From the NCBI GenBank assembly GCA_965228855.1, contig CBDDIJ010000003.1:1440001-1504000 (forward strand): DNA of 64,000 nucleotides, written 5' to 3'. The stretch's first letter is position 1. Every line of letters begins with the position of its first letter. The translations under genes were made by a program, and so were the position numbers. Of this stretch, positions 21,785-34,246 are shown piece by piece. The DNA comes from Candidatus Obscuribacterales bacterium. GTDB taxonomy: Bacteria; Cyanobacteriota; Vampirovibrionia; Obscuribacterales; Obscuribacteraceae. A model generated the notes under the pieces. That model had not been told where the DNA came from and did no database searches. It saw only the letters and a program-made list of their open reading frames with translations.

Positions 21785-22210
21785 TTACCGTGAGGCTGGG
21801 GTGGAAACAATGGGCTGTATTGACGTCGCCGTGCACGTAACAACCGAGAATCCGGGAATCGGCACAGGCAGTTTTACATCCATGGCGGTGGAAACCGTCA
21901 CATGTCCAGTGCCGAGGTTGAAATCCAGGTTGGTCATCTGAATATTCTGAACAATGGAATTGTGCTCGCAGTCGGATAGAGCGTCAGATGCAGCTTTGGT
22001 AGCGCTGGATTTGTCGATTCGCAACGCGGCAGCTCGTGCCGCGGTCTCCGCCCATTGCTCGTTGTTCTGGCTGGTTGAGATCAAGCAGACAACATTTACT
22101 GCGGCAAGACCGATTGGTATCAATACCATGAAACCGACCAGCGCCTCGATGAGACTCTGGCCGCGACTTCGGCGTCTTCGCTTTTTAGATCGGTCTTTCA
22201 CTGAAGTCAC
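21785..22210 (-). CDS. TadE-like pseudopilin
   Basis: Prepilin site RSRG|QSLIE with E+5, hydrophobic helix, AARAAA. Confidence 0.78.
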   Translation of the reverse strand: MTSVKDRSKKRRRRSRGQSLIEALVGFMVLIPIGLAAVNVVCLISTSQNNEQWAETAARAAALRIDKSSATKAASDALSDCEHNSIVQNIQMTNLDFNLGTGHVTVSTAMDVKLPVPIPGFSVVTCTATSIQPIVSTPASR

Positions 22211-22776
22211 CGCAGGTAGTTCAATGGGGTTTCCATTACGCGCTTGTTCGAAATCTTCGTGATAAGCGGCGCTCCGATGCCTGGAACGCCGAAGAAGAAT
22301 GGAATTTTGAGAAATGGATTAATTTCGCAGGTCGTAGAAACCGTTACGTAGCAGGTTCCATGCTTTGCCGAATAGCTCACAACCGTTTCCGGCAACTGAG
22401 AAGTTCCTGAAAAACCGCCTATGATGGAGCTCGCCCATCGCTGAGGGATGGTCAATTTCACCGGACCGTTTGCGGCGTCGGCCTGGGAGCGCGGAAGTTT
22501 AGAGGCCTCGCGCAATTGAAGATCGTTGAGAGCGACGCACGAACAGTAGTTATAGCCGGCAACGATCATGTCCAGCACAGGAAAGATCGCGAAGAAGAAC
22601 AGGAGAAACAATGCAGGAGCAAATTCACTGATCGCGGCCCCTAGATTTCCGCGTTTTCTTGTCTTCCGAAGGTTCAGGCGTCCTGCCCATGCGCCAAAAC
22701 TCCCACGCCTGGAGCTCAGACGCCTTGTTGCTTTTAAACCGTTTCCGCAGCGGACGATCATTTTTCTGGCTCTCAC
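22207..22776 (-). CDS. TadE-like pseudopilin
   Basis: Arg-rich leader, GAAISEFAPALFLLFFF, LREAS; 4-bp overlap with the next gene. Start uncertain. Confidence 0.7.
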   Translation of the reverse strand: MRARKMIVRCGNGLKATRRLSSRRGSFGAWAGRLNLRKTRKRGNLGAAISEFAPALFLLFFFAIFPVLDMIVAGYNYCSCVALNDLQLREASKLPRSQADAANGPVKLTIPQRWASSIIGGFSGTSQLPETVVSYSAKHGTCYVTVSTTCEINPFLKIPFFFGVPGIGAPLITKISNKRVMETPLNYLR

Positions 22777-25757: not shown

Positions 25758-27743
25758 ATGCGCGTTAATGAACGCCGCCCAGCGCCTCAAATTGTAACTT
25801 TCGGGCGGTCAGGCTATGATCTCCCCTTGGCAGGGGCGGGGTATCGTTCAGGTTCGTTTGCAATGCAATTCACTCACCAGCGTGCAGGCAAGGACTTCCC
25901 AGAAATTGGGCATCCGTCCGTTTGGCTGCGCGATTGCAAGCTGCTTTTCGTCGGCGCCTATCGCGACGCGAAGGTACGCGAAGCAAAATTTTTCGGCAGC
26001 TGGGGCGAGGGTGAGTTGCTCTACCTGGGCATCAGCGATGTTTCCGACCGTTTGAAAACCGACGAACGCATTCGGAAACTCAAACCGGGTGTTTATATCG
26101 AAATTCCTGAACAGCCTCGCTTTGCACTTAAGGGGACTCCCACCAGGGGCGAACCTCTTGGTGCGACCAGTCCGGGTTCTACAATCCAACCCTTGAAAGG
26201 TTTCCTTCGGTCTATTCAAACGAAAAATGTTCGCGAGAACGACCCCGAAATGTGGCGCTTCCGGGCGAACGTGCTTCGCAAGATAGAAGAGAATAAGGAC
26301 GCTTTTAGTTTTGGCTTGAATCGAATTATTGCAATCAGCGGAGATAAGCCAGCACCGACTGCGATACCATCTGTTGAAAACCTCGGGACTGATGGTGTCA
26401 CTGAGGAGCAGGCGAAACAATTTGAAGAACTTCTGGCTCCCCACTTTGCCCAAATTTCTCGAACGAAGCCAATCGATAAATCTCGCATTGAAGAGATTGT
26501 AGCTAAATACTATGCGACATTGGATTTGGTGGCACCGCAGGTGGTGGTGCTACCAAACCCACTTTCTACTGCCATCGCAGGCGCTTTTGCGACTGCGCTT
26601 TTGTTCGCTGAAAAGAATACTATCGATCCATCACTAGTTAAAATATCAAGTCCCGTAACGCACGGGTTGCTATCTCGGCAGGTTTCAGATGAACTTGTAG
26701 AGCGCACCATGAATGTCGCACAGGACAGTCTGGACGAGGATACTCGCAGGGATCTTTTTTCGATTCTTAGATCCAAATCTTTCGTTAATCGTTTCCGAAA
26801 TGATGCGTTGAGGTTTTTAGATTACCTGGAAACAGTCGAAACTGTGAATCGACACGAAAACCCTTCCGTCCGCCGGAGTGCCGGCGCAACCCAACTTGCC
26901 GAACTGGCGAAGTTTGCCGGCAGCGATATTTATCCTGCTTGGAATATAGATTTTAAACCAATTTGCGATGCTATCAATAAAGTCGTCTACGACCCTATCG
27001 ATCTTTCTTCGCATGAAGTAGTTCAATCGGTAAAAGATGGTTTGGAAGAGATCGCCTTCACCATCTCCGGTGGCAACATCTATTTGAACGATTTGCTCCT
27101 CTGGTCGCTACACTCAAAGTCAAAACTTCTCCTTGATGTTGCAATCAAAGGTGCCGCCCTTTACGTCACGGATGTTCTAGGCTTAGAAAACCCGCTATTC
27201 AAGCAGTTCTCGAATTGGTCTAAATTCGCTCTCGAAGGCGCCGCGTTTGTTTTGCACGAAGAGTTTTGCTTTATCTCAGATTTCCCGGAGAGCATCATCA
27301 CTGATGATTCCGGCAGATTGCACAACTCGGATGGACCGGCAATGACTTGGAGCGATGGCTGGAGCTGTTATTACTGGCGCAACCTGCCGATACCGCGCTG
27401 GATGATCGAAGAGAAGGAACGTATTACAGTCGAAATGATTAATGCGATGGAAAACATCGAGATACGGCGAGTGATGCTCGAAATCTACGGAACAGGAAAG
27501 TACATTATCGACAGTGGAACAAAAGAGGTTCAGCGCGACGAGTACGGAGTTCTTTACTGGCAAGAAATGGCAAACGATGAGCCACTGCGAATGGTGCGCG
27601 TAAGAAACTCGACGGCAGAGCCTGACGGTACGTTTAAAGACTACTGGCTGCGCGTCCCGCCCGAAATCAGAACCGCCAAACAGGGCGTAGCCTGGACCTT
27701 TGACCTGGACGAAGACGAGTACGCCCCAATCATCGAAACCTGA
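25758..27743 (+). CDS. DUF6745-like domain protein
   Basis: C-terminal GRLHNSDGPAMTWSDG, EIRRVMLE, VRNSTAEPDG..KDYWLRVPP, VAWTF. Start may be ATG 25863. Confidence 0.75.
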   Translation: MRVNERRPAPQIVTFGRSGYDLPLAGAGYRSGSFAMQFTHQRAGKDFPEIGHPSVWLRDCKLLFVGAYRDAKVREAKFFGSWGEGELLYLGISDVSDRLKTDERIRKLKPGVYIEIPEQPRFALKGTPTRGEPLGATSPGSTIQPLKGFLRSIQTKNVRENDPEMWRFRANVLRKIEENKDAFSFGLNRIIAISGDKPAPTAIPSVENLGTDGVTEEQAKQFEELLAPHFAQISRTKPIDKSRIEEIVAKYYATLDLVAPQVVVLPNPLSTAIAGAFATALLFAEKNTIDPSLVKISSPVTHGLLSRQVSDELVERTMNVAQDSLDEDTRRDLFSILRSKSFVNRFRNDALRFLDYLETVETVNRHENPSVRRSAGATQLAELAKFAGSDIYPAWNIDFKPICDAINKVVYDPIDLSSHEVVQSVKDGLEEIAFTISGGNIYLNDLLLWSLHSKSKLLLDVAIKGAALYVTDVLGLENPLFKQFSNWSKFALEGAAFVLHEEFCFISDFPESIITDDSGRLHNSDGPAMTWSDGWSCYYWRNLPIPRWMIEEKERITVEMINAMENIEIRRVMLEIYGTGKYIIDSGTKEVQRDEYGVLYWQEMANDEPLRMVRVRNSTAEPDGTFKDYWLRVPPEIRTAKQGVAWTFDLDEDEYAPIIET

Positions 27744-27950: not shown

Positions 27951-27973
27951 ATTCTGTGAACGAGATCCACCAA
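27951..27973. repeat. 23-bp direct repeat, copy 1 (copy 2 at 34188-34210)
   Basis: ATTCTGTGAACGAGATCCACCAA versus ATTCTGTGAACGAGATTCACAAA: 21/23 identical, first 16 exact. Confidence 0.75.
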
Positions 27974-27977
27974 TTTC

Positions 27978-28685
27978 CTATGGGCGCTTAACAACAGAGC
28001 ATGTGTTCGAGTTGCCGCTGACGTTGACGCTGGGCTGTTTCTGACCGTTCAAACCTTTGAGCCAGAAGATGGTATTGTGATTACCTGGGACAGAAATGGC
28101 GCCAACATTTTCGCATCGCACGGTATTGAAATTTCCGGACACGGACAACACTCTGCAGTCTCCAATGATCGACAAGCTACAATGACTGCCCTGTACCACG
28201 ACACCATTATTGGTGCAGGTCAGGGTCTGATTGATGTTGTTATCGTACAAAATTATGTCGTCAACGCTAACATCAATTACCTTCGGGAGGGGCTTTCGCG
28301 ATTTTCCGACCGATGCTCCAGATAACATCATCAGCGCCTGAACTTTTGCTGGAAGTTGCGCGGAATTGTTCGCCGAGCCTTTCGGAGCGGTCCGATTTGC
28401 CGCAGTGCCTTGACCAAGAGCCTTACCTGCCGCGGATTTCTGACCGGCAGCTTTGCCTACAGTTGAGGAGTTGACTGAACCGCTTCCAGTGACAGGACTT
28501 CCACTCTTGGCTCGGCCACTCGCCGGTCCTTTCACATCGACTTTCTTTCCGTATCGCGTCTGAATCGAAACTCCGCCTGGACCCAACTGAACGGTGTCGC
28601 CACTTTCCGTAGTCACATCAATCTGGGCTCCGGCAGGAAACTGTATAAAAGCTAGTATCACTACTAAACCGATTATGTTCCGCAC
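27978..28685 (-). CDS. Secreted DUF3060-like protein
   Basis: Signal peptide, low-complexity G/S/A/K linker, C-terminal TLTC...VVVQG...GDC..LSVSGNFNTV...GNHNTI beta-repeats. Confidence 0.65.
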   Translation of the reverse strand: MRNIIGLVVILAFIQFPAGAQIDVTTESGDTVQLGPGGVSIQTRYGKKVDVKGPASGRAKSGSPVTGSGSVNSSTVGKAAGQKSAAGKALGQGTAANRTAPKGSANNSAQLPAKVQALMMLSGASVGKSRKPLPKVIDVSVDDIILYDNNINQTLTCTNNGVVVQGSHCSLSIIGDCRVLSVSGNFNTVRCENVGAISVPGNHNTIFWLKGLNGQKQPSVNVSGNSNTCSVVKRP

Positions 28686-28819
28686 ATTAGTTCCACTTGA
28701 TCTAATCCCCAGCTATCCACTCTACCATCATTATGGTTTTTAGTGATGCAACTGACATGTTTGCCCATGTCGCAAGGATGCGGCGGAGCTTGGAGTGCAC
28801 ATGTTTTACATATTTATGG

Positions 28820-28849
28820 CAATGACTGCGACCGGAGTCGCAGTCATTG
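28820..28849. terminator. 13-bp perfect hairpin downstream of the fasciclin gene
   Basis: CAATGACTGCGAC-CGGA-GTCGCAGTCATTG, 18 bp past the fasciclin stop codon. Confidence 0.65.
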
Positions 28850-28867
28850 TTCTCTGTGTCCTGTGCG

Positions 28868-29416
28868 CTATAGCGACGGGGGAAGAATAACAGTATCGAT
28901 CACATGAACCACCCCATTGCTGCAGATGATGTCAGTCGAGGTGACTTTTGCGCCTTCGACCGTCACCCCGTCAGGTGATACGGAGATGGCTATTGGTGAA
29001 CCTTCAACCGACTTGGCGGTCTTCAATTTCACGACGTCTTCTGCCTTCACAGATCCAGGGACGACGTGGAAGGTCAAAACTTTTGTCAATTTCGCCTTGT
29101 CCTTGAGGAGCGCGGACAGTTGATCCGCCGGAAGTTTTTTGAACGCTTCATCAGTTGGTGCGAACACGGTAAAAGGTCCTTCCCCTTTAAGTGTCTCCAC
29201 CAGTCCTGCCTCCTTCAGTGCGGTGACTAGCGTGCCGAATGAGCCGGCTGATTGAGCGGTATCCACAATATCTTTCGTAAGCGTTTTTTCCATTTGTTTT
29301 TCTCCTGATTTAGATTTTGAACAGTCTGCGCTCACTGGCGCAATACTCAAAGTTGAACAACTGATCAGTGCTGTTGCTGCAGCGGCAATTCTCGTGAATC
29401 TGATGAGCGACGCCAT
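28868..29416 (-). CDS. Secreted fasciclin (FAS1) domain protein
   Basis: [39 protein letters not shown] at 29416 with GGAGG RBS and a signal peptide. Confidence 0.95.
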
Positions 29417-29462
29417 TTCGATGCCTCCTCTCTCTGCGTACTCGGTCATCGTATTTGTCTTC

Positions 29463-29481
29463 TGTGAACGCATTGTGAACG
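29463..29481 (-). promoter_or_regulatory. Tandem 11-bp-period direct repeat (OmpR-type operator candidate)
   Basis: CGTTCACA-ATG-CGTTCACA on the minus strand, about 45 bp upstream of the fasciclin ATG. Confidence 0.55.
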
Positions 29482-29631
29482 GAGTGCGCGATCTGAAATT
29501 CATTTTTTTCGTGTTCACAGAGCAGTCATTTGAACTTAATAAGATAGGTATGCGTGAAAACCTAGCTTGTCGTTCATCAATGCTTGCCATAAGCGACCGT
29601 GACCGATTGGTATAGCTGGAGGTAAAGTTCA

Positions 29632-30663
29632 ATGTCCACTGCATCCACTAGTGAAGAGTTCTTTAGTTTTCAACGAAATCTTGACTCCTTTGACGAACAA
29701 ATGGACTGGGGAGCGCACCGCCTGCGATGGCGCAGCCGTTGGGGCCACGAAGAGGTGATTCGTCGAGAATCTGAGTTTCAAGAGTGGCGAAATCCATACA
29801 ACGGAAGCGCAAAGGAACTATCGCTAGCGCATTATATGAAGTACGCATCACAGTTCCGACTGCTCACGCATCAGGAGGAATTGCAACTAGCAGAGCGCGC
29901 CTTGAATGGCGACGAGCGCGCTCGCGAAAAGTTGGTACTTTCGAACTTGCGTCTAGTAGTTAAATTTGCCAAAAGATACAAAGATCGTGGGATTGATTTT
30001 GAGGACCTTGTTCAAGAAGGCAACTTGGGATTGATACGCGCCTCTCAGTCATTCGATCCGTCAAAAGGCACCAGGTTCTCGACCTATGCGTGCATGTGGA
30101 TTATTCAGTTTATCTCTCGCATGGTCGACAACAAATCGCGTTCAATAAGGTTGCCGATCCGAGTTCACAAAGACATTAGAACAGTAAAGCAAATAATTGA
30201 AAGAGTAAAACTCACTAGAGGAACAGAGCCATCAATTGAAGAGATCGTTAAAATTTCAGAGTTGAGCGAGTCTAGAGTAAAAGCTGCATTCAAGAATATG
30301 ATCAGTCCCATATCTCTGAATCAAGAAACCGGTTTTGAGAACACCATCGAGCTCGGCGACCAAATAGTCTACAACGATGGCGATGATGTTGAGTCACCAG
30401 TAGAGCAACAGCTTTCCGAAGAGTTTGTCCGCACTTTGATTGGAATCCTAACACCCGAGGAAAGTAAGGTGATTTCAGAGCGGTATGGATTGACAGGCAA
30501 TAGCGAAATCGGCTTTAAAGAACTTTCGGAGCGCACAGGAATACCGCTGGGCAAAGTTAAACGAATTCATGCGATTGCCCTGAAGAAGATGAAGAGAAAA
30601 GCAAATCTGCTCTCCGAAACGAGGGGCGTGACAAAGGTTGGCTATTTCGCTTTACCGGGTTGA
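29632..30663 (+). CDS. Alternative sigma-70 factor (RpoD/RpoS-like architecture, divergent)
   Basis: Region 1.2 (LLTHQEE), region 2 ([33 protein letters not shown]), region 3 (PISLN), region 4 HTH. Confidence 0.9.
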
Positions 30664-30678
30664 GCCCGGATTGTGAGT

Positions 30679-30695
30679 ATTCACTCGACGTTCAT
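30679..30695 (+). promoter_or_regulatory. Degenerate 11-bp-period repeat upstream of the response regulator
   Basis: ATTCAC-TCGAC-GTTCAT. Confidence 0.35.
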
Positions 30696-30774
30696 CTCCT
30701 GGAGTTAAATTAAACTGTAGGGAACGATAACTCGTTTCAATTGCGGTCAACCTGCGACGATAGTTCGATTCAAA

Positions 30775-31485
30775 ATGTCAAAACTTCTTTTAGTCGAGGA
30801 CGAGCTTGACCTACTTGAGCTTACCAGCATAGCTTTGAGTTCGAGAGGATACAGCGTACAGAAGTGCAGCAGCGGCGACGAAGCGCTCGGTATGCTGCGT
30901 GTCTACAAATTTGACCTGGTTATCTTAGACTGGATGATGCCGGATATCACCGGTATCGAAGTTTTGAAACAGTATCGCGAAATGGGCGGCAATCTTCCTG
31001 TCTTAATGCTCACCGCTAAAGCGTCCGCTGACGATAAAGAGTTCGGACTTGATTCTGGCGCTGATGATTATTTGACTAAACCGTTCGAAATTAAAGAACT
31101 TTGTGCGCGGGTGAGAGCGCTCTTGCGGCGTCCGGCAAATGTCTCCAGCCCCGTGCTGGAAGCGGGCAGTATCCGGGTCGACCCAGCGGCTTGTCTGGTC
31201 GAGAAAGCTGGCATCGAAATTCATTTGAGACCAAAAGTTTATGACCTGTTACTGTTTTTTATGCGGCATCCGGATCAAGTCTTTACGGCCGAAGCCCTTA
31301 TGGAAAGGGTATGGATGGATGACAGCACCGCATCACCAGATACGGTGCGGACGCACATCAAATTGCTTCGGCAATCTATTAGCACGAAGGGCTCAGAAGA
31401 TTTGATTGAGACAATTAGAGGAAAGGGCTACATTCTCAGATCGAATAGAGATGATGCCCAAACTGATCCAGGTTCAAGACTCTGA
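30775..31485 (+). CDS. OmpR/PhoB-family response regulator
   Basis: LLVEDE, LDWMMP, MLTA, KPF; wHTH VRTHIKLLR...IETIRGKGY. Confidence 0.95.
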   Translation: MSKLLLVEDELDLLELTSIALSSRGYSVQKCSSGDEALGMLRVYKFDLVILDWMMPDITGIEVLKQYREMGGNLPVLMLTAKASADDKEFGLDSGADDYLTKPFEIKELCARVRALLRRPANVSSPVLEAGSIRVDPAACLVEKAGIEIHLRPKVYDLLLFFMRHPDQVFTAEALMERVWMDDSTASPDTVRTHIKLLRQSISTKGSEDLIETIRGKGYILRSNRDDAQTDPGSRL

Positions 31486-32655
31486 TGTATTGACTGTGCT
31501 GTTTTCAATTGGAATTTCAAACCAAAAGGTTGAACCTCTTCCGACTTTGCTATCCACGCCGATCTGTCCTCCATGTATTTCGACAAGTGATTTCGAAATC
31601 GACAAGCCGAGACCTGTTCCACCGGGTACTCTTTTGTCGGACGAATCAATCTGTTGAAATTTTTGGAATAGTTTTCCGAAGTCCTTTTGGGCGATTCCCG
31701 GGCCTCTGTCGATAACTCTGAAGCAGATGAAACCGTCTCGATTTTTGACAGTTTGAATTCTGATCTTGCTGTTGTTGGGCGAAAACTTTATGGCATTAGC
31801 AGTTAAATTACTCAGAACCTGAGCTAGCCTATCTCGATCAACATTCATTACGTCGTCGCAATTTATGTTTACTTCAAAGTTGATATTGCGTTCCGCTGCA
31901 GTCGCCTCAAGTTCGCCAAGAACCTGTTCAATCAAGTCTTGAGGCAACGTTCGCTCAAGTCTGAGCTCCATCTTTCCAGCTTCTATTTTTCGAAAATCAA
32001 GGATATCGTTTACCAGCTTGAGTAAGCGACTGGTGTTTCGACCTGCCATTTCCACTAGTTTGGATGAGTCCGCCGTGAGCGGGCCTCCGGTTCCCTCCGC
32101 CAACAAAGCCAGGGCTGTTCGCACCGAGGATAGTGGCGTTCTGAGCTCATGGGAAATCTTCGAATAGAACTCGGAGATTGCCTTCTCAGCTTCCTTTCTA
32201 GCCGTTATGTCGTTCTGAACACCAATAAAATTGATCAAGCCGCCTGACTCGTCATGCACCGGTGAGACCGTGAGTTCATTCCAGAAAAGGGTATGGTTCT
32301 TTCTGTAGTTTCTCAAAACAACCGTGATGGACTCTTGTTTCTGGATTGCTTCCCTCAACTGTTGCAGACCTTCTTGATCGCGATCATCACCTTGCAAGAA
32401 TCGGCAGTTGTGACCGATTACTTCTTCGCGGGTGTAGCCTGACATATCAAGGAAGCTTGGGTTCACATAAATGATTGGGTTATCGACTTGATGTGGATCG
32501 GTTATCACTATGCCGTTTCTCGCGCATGATATTGCGCGCTCCAGAATCATCATTTTGTCTCGAGAATTTTTTACATCTTCCAAGATTGGTGCACAGGTCG
32601 ATTCAGAGCCTTTGGTCCCGCTGCGTATGCGTCCTCTGCGTTTTTCTTCGGTCAT
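31474..32655 (-). CDS. Soluble LOV-domain (blue-light) sensor histidine kinase
   Basis: LOV signature GHNCRFLQG with NYRK, FWN and GVQ; H-box SHELRTPL; N box, G1 DRGPGI, G2 GTGLGL; no TM segments. Confidence 0.93.
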   Translation of the reverse strand: MTEEKRRGRIRSGTKGSESTCAPILEDVKNSRDKMMILERAISCARNGIVITDPHQVDNPIIYVNPSFLDMSGYTREEVIGHNCRFLQGDDRDQEGLQQLREAIQKQESITVVLRNYRKNHTLFWNELTVSPVHDESGGLINFIGVQNDITARKEAEKAISEFYSKISHELRTPLSSVRTALALLAEGTGGPLTADSSKLVEMAGRNTSRLLKLVNDILDFRKIEAGKMELRLERTLPQDLIEQVLGELEATAAERNINFEVNINCDDVMNVDRDRLAQVLSNLTANAIKFSPNNSKIRIQTVKNRDGFICFRVIDRGPGIAQKDFGKLFQKFQQIDSSDKRVPGGTGLGLSISKSLVEIHGGQIGVDSKVGRGSTFWFEIPIENSTVNTSES

Positions 32656-32686
32656 TAGCAATGCACTCGTACGAAATTCTGCCGTG

Positions 32687-33466
32687 TCACTTGGATGCAA
32701 CTCGTGGGCGCAAGTTCGAAAGACCGCCATCGATTCTGAATATTTGGCCGGTGACCCAAGAATTTTCTTCGGACAGCAGCCATGTTATTGCTGAGGCGAC
32801 ATACTCAGGTGTGCCCACGCGTCCGAGTGCGTGCATATCATCAGAAGATCGCCTTGCCGACTCGGCCGAGAGCAAGTGTCGTGTCAACTTTGTCTCAATC
32901 AAGCCCGGCGCGACACAATTAACGCGGATGTTTCGCCGCGCATAAGACGCAGCCGCCGCGACTGCGAGCCCTTCGATACCTGCTTTAGCTGCCGAGATAG
33001 CCTCATGTGAAGCCAGTCCGACCGTTGCCGCAGCCGATGACAGAAGAACTATTGAACCACCTCCTCGCATCATAGCTCCTGCTGCCGCTCTCACTATCTT
33101 AAAGCTCGAGGTCAAATTCACGTCGATGACGGACTGCCACTCTTGATCGGTAATAAGATGCGCAGGTTTCAACAACAATGAGCCAATGCAGTTGACGACG
33201 CCGTCGACGCGTCCGTATTTTTCGAACGTCTGACTGATGCACGCATCTATGGAACCTTGCTCAGCAACATCGACCTGGTGTCCGTCCACACTCATGTCCC
33301 TGATGCACTGATCGAGAGAGGCTTTGTTCCTCCCGGTGACAACTACTGTGCAGCCGACGCTGACTAGATTCTTCGAGACCGCAGACCCGATACCGCCTGT
33401 GCCACCAAAAACGATAAATACCTTCTCTTTGGACCGCGACTGTTCATCCAGTGCCATCTGTTTCAC
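32687..33466 (-). CDS. Atypical short-chain dehydrogenase/reductase
   Basis: GGTGGIG, VNCIG, DVNL, IRVNCVAPG, VTGQ..IDGG; YxxxK replaced by ISAAK. Confidence 0.9.
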   Translation of the reverse strand: MKQMALDEQSRSKEKVFIVFGGTGGIGSAVSKNLVSVGCTVVVTGRNKASLDQCIRDMSVDGHQVDVAEQGSIDACISQTFEKYGRVDGVVNCIGSLLLKPAHLITDQEWQSVIDVNLTSSFKIVRAAAGAMMRGGGSIVLLSSAAATVGLASHEAISAAKAGIEGLAVAAAASYARRNIRVNCVAPGLIETKLTRHLLSAESARRSSDDMHALGRVGTPEYVASAITWLLSEENSWVTGQIFRIDGGLSNLRPRVASK

Positions 33467-33505
33467 CCCCAGATTCCTTCTAATCTTATATCAGCTCGTC
33501 GACGC

Positions 33506-34138
33506 CTAGCTAAATGCGTCTTTCAGCGCGGCTCTAGCGGCCAGATGCTTTCTGGTTTCGTTTAACAGCCTGTATTCATTTTGCAGACGCTCAATCGTCG
33601 TCTCCACTTCCAGAAGGCGTTGTTGCTCAGCCGGTGAACCATATAGTCTTGCCGGCACCCAGTAGGATAGCTCAGTCGGATCATCGGGGCAGTCACTAAC
33701 CACATCAATCGGAACCCCTTGCAGCTTAGATGAAAGGCGTGCGATGTCATCCAGGGCGGTACGGACTTCACGAGCGACCTCGAAGCAATCAATATTTGGC
33801 TCGCAATCGGTGATTCGATGGACGCGAGCCTGCCTGTAAGGTCTGCCGTCTACCAGACTCAATAAGGAAAACCGATCGCATCCTCGAACAATTATGTTCA
33901 TGCGCCCGTCAGGGAGCTTCGTCAGGTCCACTATCCTGGCAAGGCAGCCCATACCCGATATCGTAGCGCCCTCCTCGATTCGTATGACACCGAAGGTGCC
34001 GCCGGATTTCAAAACATCATGAATCATTTCCCGATATCGGTTCTCAAAAATGTGCAGAGGCAAATCTATAAACGGGAAAAGAACCACAGGTAGTGGAAAG
34101 ATCGGAACCACAAGCGACCGATTTATTGACTTGTTCAT
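33506..34138 (-). CDS. Stand-alone LON peptidase substrate-binding (N-terminal) domain protein
   Basis: PIFPLPVVLFP..LPLHIFE.RY, PDGR.NI...G..RF, QQRLLE...ERL; ATG at 34138 with GAGG upstream. Confidence 0.88.
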   Translation of the reverse strand: MNKSINRSLVVPIFPLPVVLFPFIDLPLHIFENRYREMIHDVLKSGGTFGVIRIEEGATISGMGCLARIVDLTKLPDGRMNIIVRGCDRFSLLSLVDGRPYRQARVHRITDCEPNIDCFEVAREVRTALDDIARLSSKLQGVPIDVVSDCPDDPTELSYWVPARLYGSPAEQQRLLEVETTIERLQNEYRLLNETRKHLAARAALKDAFS

Positions 34139-34181
34139 TGCTACTTCCTCAGGGCACCCTCTTCTATCATGAATCTTTCCG

Positions 34182-34210
34182 CTGAACATTCTGTGAACGA
34201 GATTCACAAA
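34182..34210 (-). promoter_or_regulatory. Operator-like motif / 23-bp repeat copy 2, upstream of LON-N-SDR-LOV-HK
   Basis: Minus strand GTTCAC-AGAAT-GTTCAG (11-bp period), overlapping the palindrome TGTGAA-N5-TTCACA. Confidence 0.55.
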
Positions 34211-34214
34211 ACTT

Positions 34215-34246
34215 TCGGAGCACCATCGATATCGACGGTGCTCCGA
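34215..34246 (-). terminator. Rho-independent terminator of the giant gene
   Basis: TCGGAGCACCGTCGA-TA-TCGATGGTGCTCCGA followed by AAGTTTTG, 27 bp after the stop codon. Confidence 0.7.

Follow-up and report, generated by a model that had tools for sequence, protein, structure and literature searches.

The adduct chemistry of LOV domains and their signalling through coiled coils are established, as set out in PMC6798134. In the engineered, light-repressed kinase YF1 (YtvA-LOV-FixL), which works with FixJ, they are combined in a minimal soluble LOV-coiled coil-HisKA-HATPase architecture. LOV kinases of the HWE/HisKA2 type in alphaproteobacteria (LovK, EL346 and RT-HK with PhyR-NepR-sigmaEcfG) steer a stress programme involving an alternative sigma factor. 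Here, we describe a locus of Candidatus Obscuribacterales bacterium in which a LOV histidine kinase is paired with an OmpR-type response regulator. The locus lies in a 64,000-nt stretch of assembly GCA_965228855.1 (contig CBDDIJ010000003.1, 1,440,001 to 1,504,000 of the forward strand), hereafter the window, and locus positions are those of this stretch. An original prediction covering 27951..34210 had presented six genes as a self-contained blue-light module. Our analysis suggests that kinase and regulator probably form a blue-light two-component switch directly activating a photo-oxidative-stress regulon, because the two genes travel with a repeated box that is found at each of the four promoters predicted in the locus and, across many genomes, 5' of light-damage genes.

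The window kinase shares the YF1 architecture, and YF1 is its best solved match (4GCZ, E 2e-54). It differs from YF1 in being natural, in having a linker 16 residues shorter and in an OmpR/PhoB-type partner with a direct-repeat site; it may also be light-activated, whereas YF1 is light-repressed. Unlike the HWE/HisKA2 kinases, it carries a classical HisKA domain, its regulator is predicted to bind DNA instead of switching partners, and the sigma factor of the locus is group-2-like, optional and downstream. Similar output genes are described for the RpoE/ChrR regulon of Rhodobacter sphaeroides, which includes the fasciclin gene RSP_1409, cfaS, RSP_1090/91, a photolyase, a folE-type cyclohydrolase, an SDR and the second-tier sigma factor RpoHII (PMC7074977), the last comparable to the window sigma factor. 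Direct photoreception is proposed here rather than anti-sigma loss triggered by reactive oxygen species; no ChrR cupin was found in the 8.2-Mb, 95%-complete window genome, and only 10 of the 104 family genomes had any Cupin_7 match. The Vibrio ChrR/MerR response is reported with outputs similar to the box-led genes (PMC5241685), and in Pseudomonas a light-induced gene set (phrB, ufaM, folE, cryB, SDR and FAD oxidoreductase genes) is controlled by short LOV proteins and class II LitR (PMC9758184). The MerR repressor is released there by protein contact, whereas a phosphorelay to an activator is predicted here. Neither BLUF nor LitR-type B12 domains were detected in the window genome, where the sole B12-binding match lies in a 1250-amino-acid (aa) frame, not LitR-sized. 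The cyanobacterial CcaS/CcaR and UirS/UirR systems likewise join a natural light-sensing kinase to a transcription-activating regulator (PMC9614035), but their sensors are bilin cyanobacteriochromes rather than flavin LOV proteins and their outputs are others. Finally, the TTCAC-N6-TTCAC repeat of the box, with its 11-bp period, is identical to the cre/blr tag reported for CreB/BlrA (PMC3660660). The window regulator has an OmpR-family effector domain, for which PhoB is nearest among solved structures, but it scored below the NCBIfam cut-offs for CreB (165 bits versus 273) and PhoB, and its sensor and targets are different.

A conserved pair of LOV kinase and OmpR-type regulator

The kinase gene (31474..32658, minus strand, open frame to 32730) and the regulator gene (30775..31485, plus strand) converge with the 12-bp overlap that had been described. 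By Pfam the kinase contains PAS_9, HisKA and HATPase_c domains, and in the numbering of its 418-aa open reading frame (ORF) the key residues are C109, N141, N151, Q172 and the phospho-His H194. It is judged soluble because its highest 19-residue hydropathy is only 0.8; this property and the intact motif GHNCRFLQG with the flavin-contacting N, N and Q agree with the original prediction. HisKA was the only histidine-kinase dimerisation class found by Pfam, with no HWE/HisKA_2 match, and the protein fell below the NF052306 cut-off. The locus contains no PhyR, NepR or extracytoplasmic function sigma factor, the neighbours being the OmpR-type regulator and a group-2-like sigma factor, and the search for PhyR did not extend genome-wide. 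The regulator, of the OmpR/PhoB family, comprises REC and Trans_reg_C domains by Pfam, with Asp52 as the phosphorylation site, and is the predicted cognate partner of the kinase.

Since the window genome holds 43 full-length OmpR-type genes, 99 kinase matches and 13 sigma factor matches, chance adjacency of kinase and regulator needed to be excluded. In the labels used below, G denotes a genome (G000 being that of the window), C a contig, L a fetched locus, g a genus and f a family. Eighty-two loci were mapped, namely the window, its own paralogue and 80 loci from relatives, and 81 of them held a LOV kinase ORF; G228, G295, G249, G302:C1317, G007:C2, G232:C13 and matches outside the order were excluded from this mapping. 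A LOV-plus-H-box query found the kinase in 69 of the 96 other family genomes, in 3/3 genomes of the sister family and in 0/98 of the small-genome family f6. The LOV Cys, Arg, both Asn and both Gln as well as the phospho-His were invariant in 81/81 family kinases, including N, C, R and Q of GxNCRFLQ together with N141, N151, Q172 and D174 of the terminal DIT, and the kinase boxes were likewise retained (H in 81, and N, D and G in 78 each).

Within 7 kb of the kinase, a regulator was present in 70 of the 81 loci and an epimerase (Epimerase + DUF1731, which we take to be of the TIGR01777 type) in 56. These were followed by sigma factor (25), amine oxidase (24), SDR (17), cyclobutane pyrimidine dimer (CPD) photolyase (10), DUF2867 (8), LON-N (6, or 7 by tblastn) and fasciclin (4) genes. 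All six genes of the window occurred together only in the window genome and G007 (95-97% identical), with five of them in G002 and G006. Co-location in relatives therefore held for kinase and regulator and failed for the six-gene set, and the idea of a self-contained module was not borne out.

A single regulator clade adjoins the kinase in the 70 loci, in tandem, convergent and divergent layouts. It comprised 70 of the 71 LOV-neighbouring regulators (support 96), whereas the window genome's 41 other OmpR paralogues all lay elsewhere, and the phospho-accepting Asp was kept in 71/71 LOV-neighbouring regulators. The unlinked regulators of the sister family also joined this clade, and the best regulators of the kinase-negative genomes G011 and G023 fell outside it. 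Kinase and regulator identities co-varied (Spearman 0.77 over 70 loci) and tracked paralogue subfamily rather than genome. Synteny, clade membership and co-divergence thus upheld the assignment of the two as a cognate pair. Based on the locus survey, the regulator clade and the co-variation of identities, the conserved unit in Obscuribacterales is a LOV-HisKA kinase and one OmpR clade, accompanied by a shifting retinue of other genes.

Only two ORFs with the LOV motif were found in the window genome. One is the window kinase; the other, a paralogue on C2, shares 52% identity with it and adjoins the best-matching paralogue to the window regulator. This second pair (L040, G000:C2:2431870-2433742) is divergent from a TIGR01777-type gene, and both directions are led by the box described below. 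The LOV kinases at L159, L160 and L162 form a divergent subfamily, 41-48% identical over the query, and neither a clade regulator nor a box was seen in their vicinity. At L043:310-2617 (G029), which belongs to another family, genes for a LytTR regulator and a CbiX chelatase come after a related LOV kinase gene. The sister family has a hemH-LOV kinase operon with a degenerate box (L034:8590-10785 and L163), its clade regulator being encoded elsewhere (L252-L254).

A direct-repeat box in the promoters of the locus

The repeat was first spotted by eye in regions upstream of LOV-locus genes, and an earlier by-eye motif 5' of the sigma and regulator genes was dropped once the box emerged. Its consensus is GTTCAC-N5-RTTCAC, located exactly 10 bp 5' of a TANNNT -10 element; a box that substitutes for the -35 element 10 bp from the -10 is familiar from PhoB promoters and their pho box. 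The dyad TTCAY-N6-TTCAY matched 93 times in the upstream sets, whereas each of nine alternative spacers (2-5 and 7-11) gave 0-5 matches. A matrix was built from 58 dereplicated training sites, with the window genome and G007 excluded. The -10 letters were absent from the search pattern, yet T, A and T were found at their positions in 40, 51 and 49 of the 58 sites, and apart from the box the matrix showed neither a conserved -35 nor an extended -10. By these sequence statistics the box is a tandem direct-repeat site with a 10-11 bp period, as the OmpR/PhoB class has.

With a score of at least 17, 26 sites were found in the window genome, four of which lay inside the 6.3-kb locus, one per transcription unit and correctly oriented. 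At a score of at least 20, 11 of 13 sites in this held-out genome were promoter-like. The corresponding counts were 0-4 (0-1 promoter-like) in 12 permuted matrices, the same with altered half-site spacing, and 4-7 (0-3) with a shifted -10. The top site of the 8.2-Mb genome (score 30.0) precedes the fasciclin gene (29448..29480, minus strand; GTTCAC-N5-GTTCAC, -10 TACGAT). The regulator gene has a box scoring 22.4 (30679..30711, plus strand; ATTCAC-N5-GTTCAT, -10 TAAATT), which predicts autoregulation, and the LON-N/SDR/kinase unit one scoring 21.3 (34166..34198, minus strand; GTTCAC-N5-GTTCAG, -10 CATGAT). The site 5' of the sigma gene (29513..29545, plus strand; GTTCAC-N5-AGTCAT, -10 TAAGAT) scored 17.3, its second half being degenerate, and exact-pattern copies occupy the same position in G002 and G006.

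Among the 13 sigma, 4 fasciclin, 2 LON-N and 43 regulator genes of the window genome, only the window copies had a box directly upstream; the other 12 sigma genes scored at most 1.7 and the other 42 OmpR genes at most 3.5. The fasciclin gene retained the box when relocated away from the kinase (G001 and G003). Box-bearing LON-N copies were likewise found away from the kinase in G101, G041 and G002, and the second LON-N paralogue of the window genome has no box. Across genomes, the exact 33-letter pattern was present in 69/69 kinase-bearing family genomes (median 3) and in 10 of the 27 others (median 0), and the reversed pattern in 0-1 copies per genome. A box scoring at least 17 lay within 4 kb in 72 of the 81 kinase loci. 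Of the nine box-less loci, two were near the threshold, three were short contigs, one had a sister-family site of 15.9 and three held divergent kinases without a clade regulator. The pattern was also absent from the kinase-negative G011 and G023. The box is thus likely to be the operator of the window regulator clade.

Predicted regulon

The other top box targets in the window genome are the second LOV kinase, ferrochelatase, a DPRP photolyase-like (PhrB-like) protein, DUF2867 and SOUL, and further targets include an FGE-sulfatase/methyltransferase protein and several unknown ORFs. A box also leads an operon for desaturase, amine oxidase, DUF1365, CFA synthase, DUF1475 and DUF1295 proteins (L170, G000:C3:253886-259305), which resembles the furan-fatty-acid gene set of the RpoE and LitR regulons. 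In the window genome and its relatives, the box-led families comprise ferrochelatase, PhrB-like photolyase, the desaturase/DUF1365/CFA operon, the TIGR01777-type epimerase, SOUL and UvdE. Outside the mapped loci, 60 family sites were fetched from 150 listed of 298 matches, some within-genus duplicates being skipped; 36 of them preceded the same families, three rhodopsin genes and two UvdE genes (41/60). Light or singlet oxygen is reported to induce the same outputs in Rhodobacter and Pseudomonas (PMC7074977, PMC9758184), and the box-led families together with these regulons support the earlier view of the output as a photo-oxidative-stress gene set. Box-led ORF families without a Pfam match, of ~405 aa (L193, L194 and L234), ~119 aa (L122:461-820), ~71 aa (L178) and ~84 aa (L198), are candidate new light-stress proteins.

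The sigma factor and the SDR

The sigma gene (29632..30663, plus strand) encodes a group-2-like sigma70 factor with Pfam regions r1.2, r2, r3 and r4 and no r1.1, as in group 2, that scored below all NCBIfam cut-offs shown. The primary-sigma candidate is another, dnaG-adjacent gene (C5:1482734). About ten group-1/2-like sigma factors are encoded in the window genome, and the window sigma factor is ~31-37% identical to these paralogues. In a quick tree, the 25 linked sigma factors (window + 24) formed one branch (SH-aLRT 95) with long branches. The RERxRQ helix of region 4.2, which reads the -35 element, was degenerate in all 25 (PLGKVKRI in the window versus TRERIRQI in the dnaG-adjacent sigma factor), and the window subclade also had a changed region 2.4. 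The clade was clear in 28 of the 104 family genomes (at least 370 bits, next 329) from six genera, with a profile built from positive genera that could miss distant orthologues, and those members whose position was checked lay within or beside kinase loci. The regulator-type box before the sigma gene is in line with the link from regulator to sigma factor in the original prediction. The same box and -10 are, however, also used in genera that lack the sigma clade, and the sigma factor is therefore predicted to be a box-bearing target and an optional second tier, not an obligatory relay. Promoters read by the sigma factor itself did not come to light.

The SDR gene (32687..33466, minus strand; Pfam adh_short) had been called atypical, and indeed carries His at the catalytic Tyr position (HEAISAAK). 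The same substitution (HEAxxAAK) replaced the YxxxK motif in 16/16 linked SDRs with a readable motif (17 rows), and the SDR loci spanned 6 genera. Its nearest solved matches were FabG-like only; a FolM-like role is a possible lead for the His-type SDR.

Rhodopsin genes

A microbial rhodopsin was found in 12 of the 104 family genomes. In eight of the 12, the type was nearest to xanthorhodopsin and Gloeobacter rhodopsin, with a DTE motif in seven and DTD in one (xanthorhodopsin-clade loci L195:1129-1917 of G220, L237-L244 and L248). These genes were mostly followed by a crtI-like gene, labelled by sequence resemblance, and their upstream boxes scored 19-28 in seven cases and a weak 10.3 in one. 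A second type, 26-29% identical to the first, lies beside genes resembling crtB, crtY or blh (L239, L245, L246, L247 and L249), and a box was upstream in one of these five loci (L246). Neither rhodopsin nor phytoene synthase was found in the window genome.

Gene models and other features of the window

All six ORFs were present with the domains originally named (Pfam Fasciclin, sigma70, REC + Trans_reg_C, PAS_9 + HisKA + HATPase_c, adh_short and LON_substr_bdg). The sigma factor had been called divergent, which holds relative to the fasciclin gene and in sequence; with the regulator it is in tandem on the plus strand. The first-start ORFs are over-long, and based on promoter position and orthologue lengths the likely starts are ~29416 for fasciclin, ~34138 for LON-N and ~32658 for the kinase (~394 aa). 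The fasciclin (FAS1) gene (28868..29416, minus strand) would thus encode 182 aa, with orthologues of 181-182 aa, and is a predicted regulon member. The stand-alone LON-N gene (33506..34138, minus strand, 210 aa) is the first of the LON-N/SDR/kinase unit.

Upstream of this unit, a 14-bp hairpin (34215..34246, minus strand) is likely the terminator of a giant gene and would insulate the unit; the terminator scan overall did not exceed shuffles, and the call rests on stem length and position. A consensus sigma70 promoter scan of the window found 8 matches versus 6.0 expected. The giant gene (34274-56887, minus strand) encodes a Gly/Asn/Thr-rich protein of 7537 aa, and similar giant genes flank the LOV loci L023, L031 and L040. 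A DUF3060 gene (27978-28685, minus strand) was rejected as a module member, as it has no box and adjoins the kinase only here and in the near-twin G007. The window also contains a gene for a DUF6745 protein (25758-27743, plus strand) and two small ORFs (21785-22776, minus strand), presumably for TadE-type pilin-like proteins, the one scanned having no Pfam match. The closest titled relatives of the window genome are Obscuribacterales metagenome-assembled genomes, and no photosynthetic reaction-centre (Photo_RC) match was found in it, in agreement with a non-photosynthetic relative of cyanobacteria.

Discussion

In the mechanism we propose, blue light would form a Cys109-flavin adduct, the short coiled coil would shift the kinase/phosphatase balance at His194, and a phosphoryl group would pass from His194 to Asp52 of the regulator. 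The regulator would then bind GTTCAC-N5-RTTCAC as a tandem dimer replacing the -35, 10 bp before the TANNNT -10, and recruit RNA polymerase in the manner of PhoB. Among the genes switched on would be those of the switch itself, giving positive feedback, together with fasciclin, LON-N and SDR and, as an optional second tier, the sigma gene. These functional steps, from the photocycle and phosphotransfer to DNA binding, activation and the light-on direction, are inferred.

Several observations weigh against this proposal. With two LOV kinase/regulator pairs in the window genome, the window pair's share of the regulon is inseparable from that of the second pair. The box pattern is also present in ten kinase-negative genomes, six of them with two or more copies; these belong to kinase-bearing genera and several are incomplete. 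Related genomes are not independent samples, and same-genus orthologous fasciclin and regulator sites sat in the training set. Nineteen of the 60 fetched sites lead elsewhere, 14 to unassigned or TPR ORFs, three to ABC ATPase genes and two to no ORF at all, and the CPD photolyase gene of the window genome, 7-8 kb from the second LOV pair, has no box (score 3.6). The light-on direction is also not secure. In YF1, linkers of 7n are reported as light-repressed and those of 7n+1 as light-activated (PMC6798134). In 76/76 matched kinases (5 unmatched) the DIT-to-phospho-His distance is 18, which is 16 less than the 34 of YF1. YF1 variants at this register (the 7n+5 class) are reportedly light-repressed.

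The register would suit an alternative in which the same parts and box follow an inverted or non-light logic, the kinase being dark-active as in YF1 or sensing flavin redox state, and the regulator repressing or activating otherwise. A single natural dark-active LOV kinase has been named (PMC12148442), and a repressor might equally occupy the box, which overlaps the -35 region. However, the fixed 10-bp distance between box and -10 fits contact by an activator better than by a repressor, as does a matrix free of any other conserved -35 or extended -10, and photolyase-like, UvdE and rhodopsin targets would be useful in the light. The YF1 rule may not transfer either, because the natural Xanthomonas LOV kinases have a DIT-to-His distance of 27, which is YF1's own register, although this group is reportedly light-activated. 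We therefore consider an inverted logic unlikely. The linear cascade envisaged in the original prediction, in which the regulator mainly switches on a private sigma factor that transcribes the stress genes, is less probable still. In the window genome, G002, G006 and G012 a box leads the sigma gene or the operon that contains it. The linked sigma factors form one branch, and the degenerate region 4.2 might be compatible with promoters in which the -35 is replaced by the regulator; RpoE-to-RpoHII offers a precedent (PMC7074977). Nevertheless, the box stands directly 5' of the output genes themselves, genera without the sigma clade (g34, g16, g13, g36 and g3) have the same box and -10, and the clade was detected in 28/104 genomes against 69/96 for the kinase, within the reach of its profile.

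The box might instead belong to one of the ~40 other OmpR proteins or to a different factor, with the LOV pair merely a target. The 43 OmpR-type genes leave room for such a factor, two unlinked paralogues in the window genome have recognition helices similar to that of the window regulator, and the match to the cre/blr tag bound by CreB/BlrA elsewhere (PMC3660660) means that the box is not unique to one protein. But the box follows the kinase across genomes and lies near it in most loci. It is missing both from G011 and G023, where kinase and clade regulator are lacking, and from the three divergent LOV kinases that have no clade regulator nearby, so that ownership by another regulator appears very improbable. 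Direct activation by the LOV kinase/regulator pair remains the reading we favour.

Full-text literature searches, with most subscription journals, supplements and a large LOV survey outside their scope, returned no description of a LOV-HisKA/OmpR system, a box regulon or a rhodopsin of this lineage among the matches listed. A term search for the lineage names gave no passage in two cyanorhodopsin papers (PMC7541481, PMC11528372). It is possible that surveys of LOV proteins or rhodopsins already include these proteins in their supplementary tables. What appears to be new is the wiring, namely the direct LOV phosphorelay and the box, the stress programme itself being already known.

A broader and more tentative proposal, to which we give somewhat less than an even chance, is that the LOV/OmpR pair acts as an order-wide master light switch of Obscuribacterales. 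Through the box it would run photoprotection and a sigma factor that has lost its -35 helix, and several lineages would add a xanthorhodopsin-type proton pump with carotenoid genes, amounting to light-induced retinal phototrophy. The box predicts a link to light stress for LON-N, the His-type SDR, the TIGR01777-type epimerase and DUF2867, and the natural two-gene pair with its 33-bp promoter element is a candidate blue-light expression tool that might work light-on with no need for an inverter. If the proposed switch is correct, it would add a direct blue-light phosphorelay to RpoE/ChrR, LitR/CarH and MerR as a wiring of the photo-oxidative gene set, and would make the little-cultured Obscuribacterales a light-sensing sister lineage of cyanobacteria, some of whose members may harvest light.

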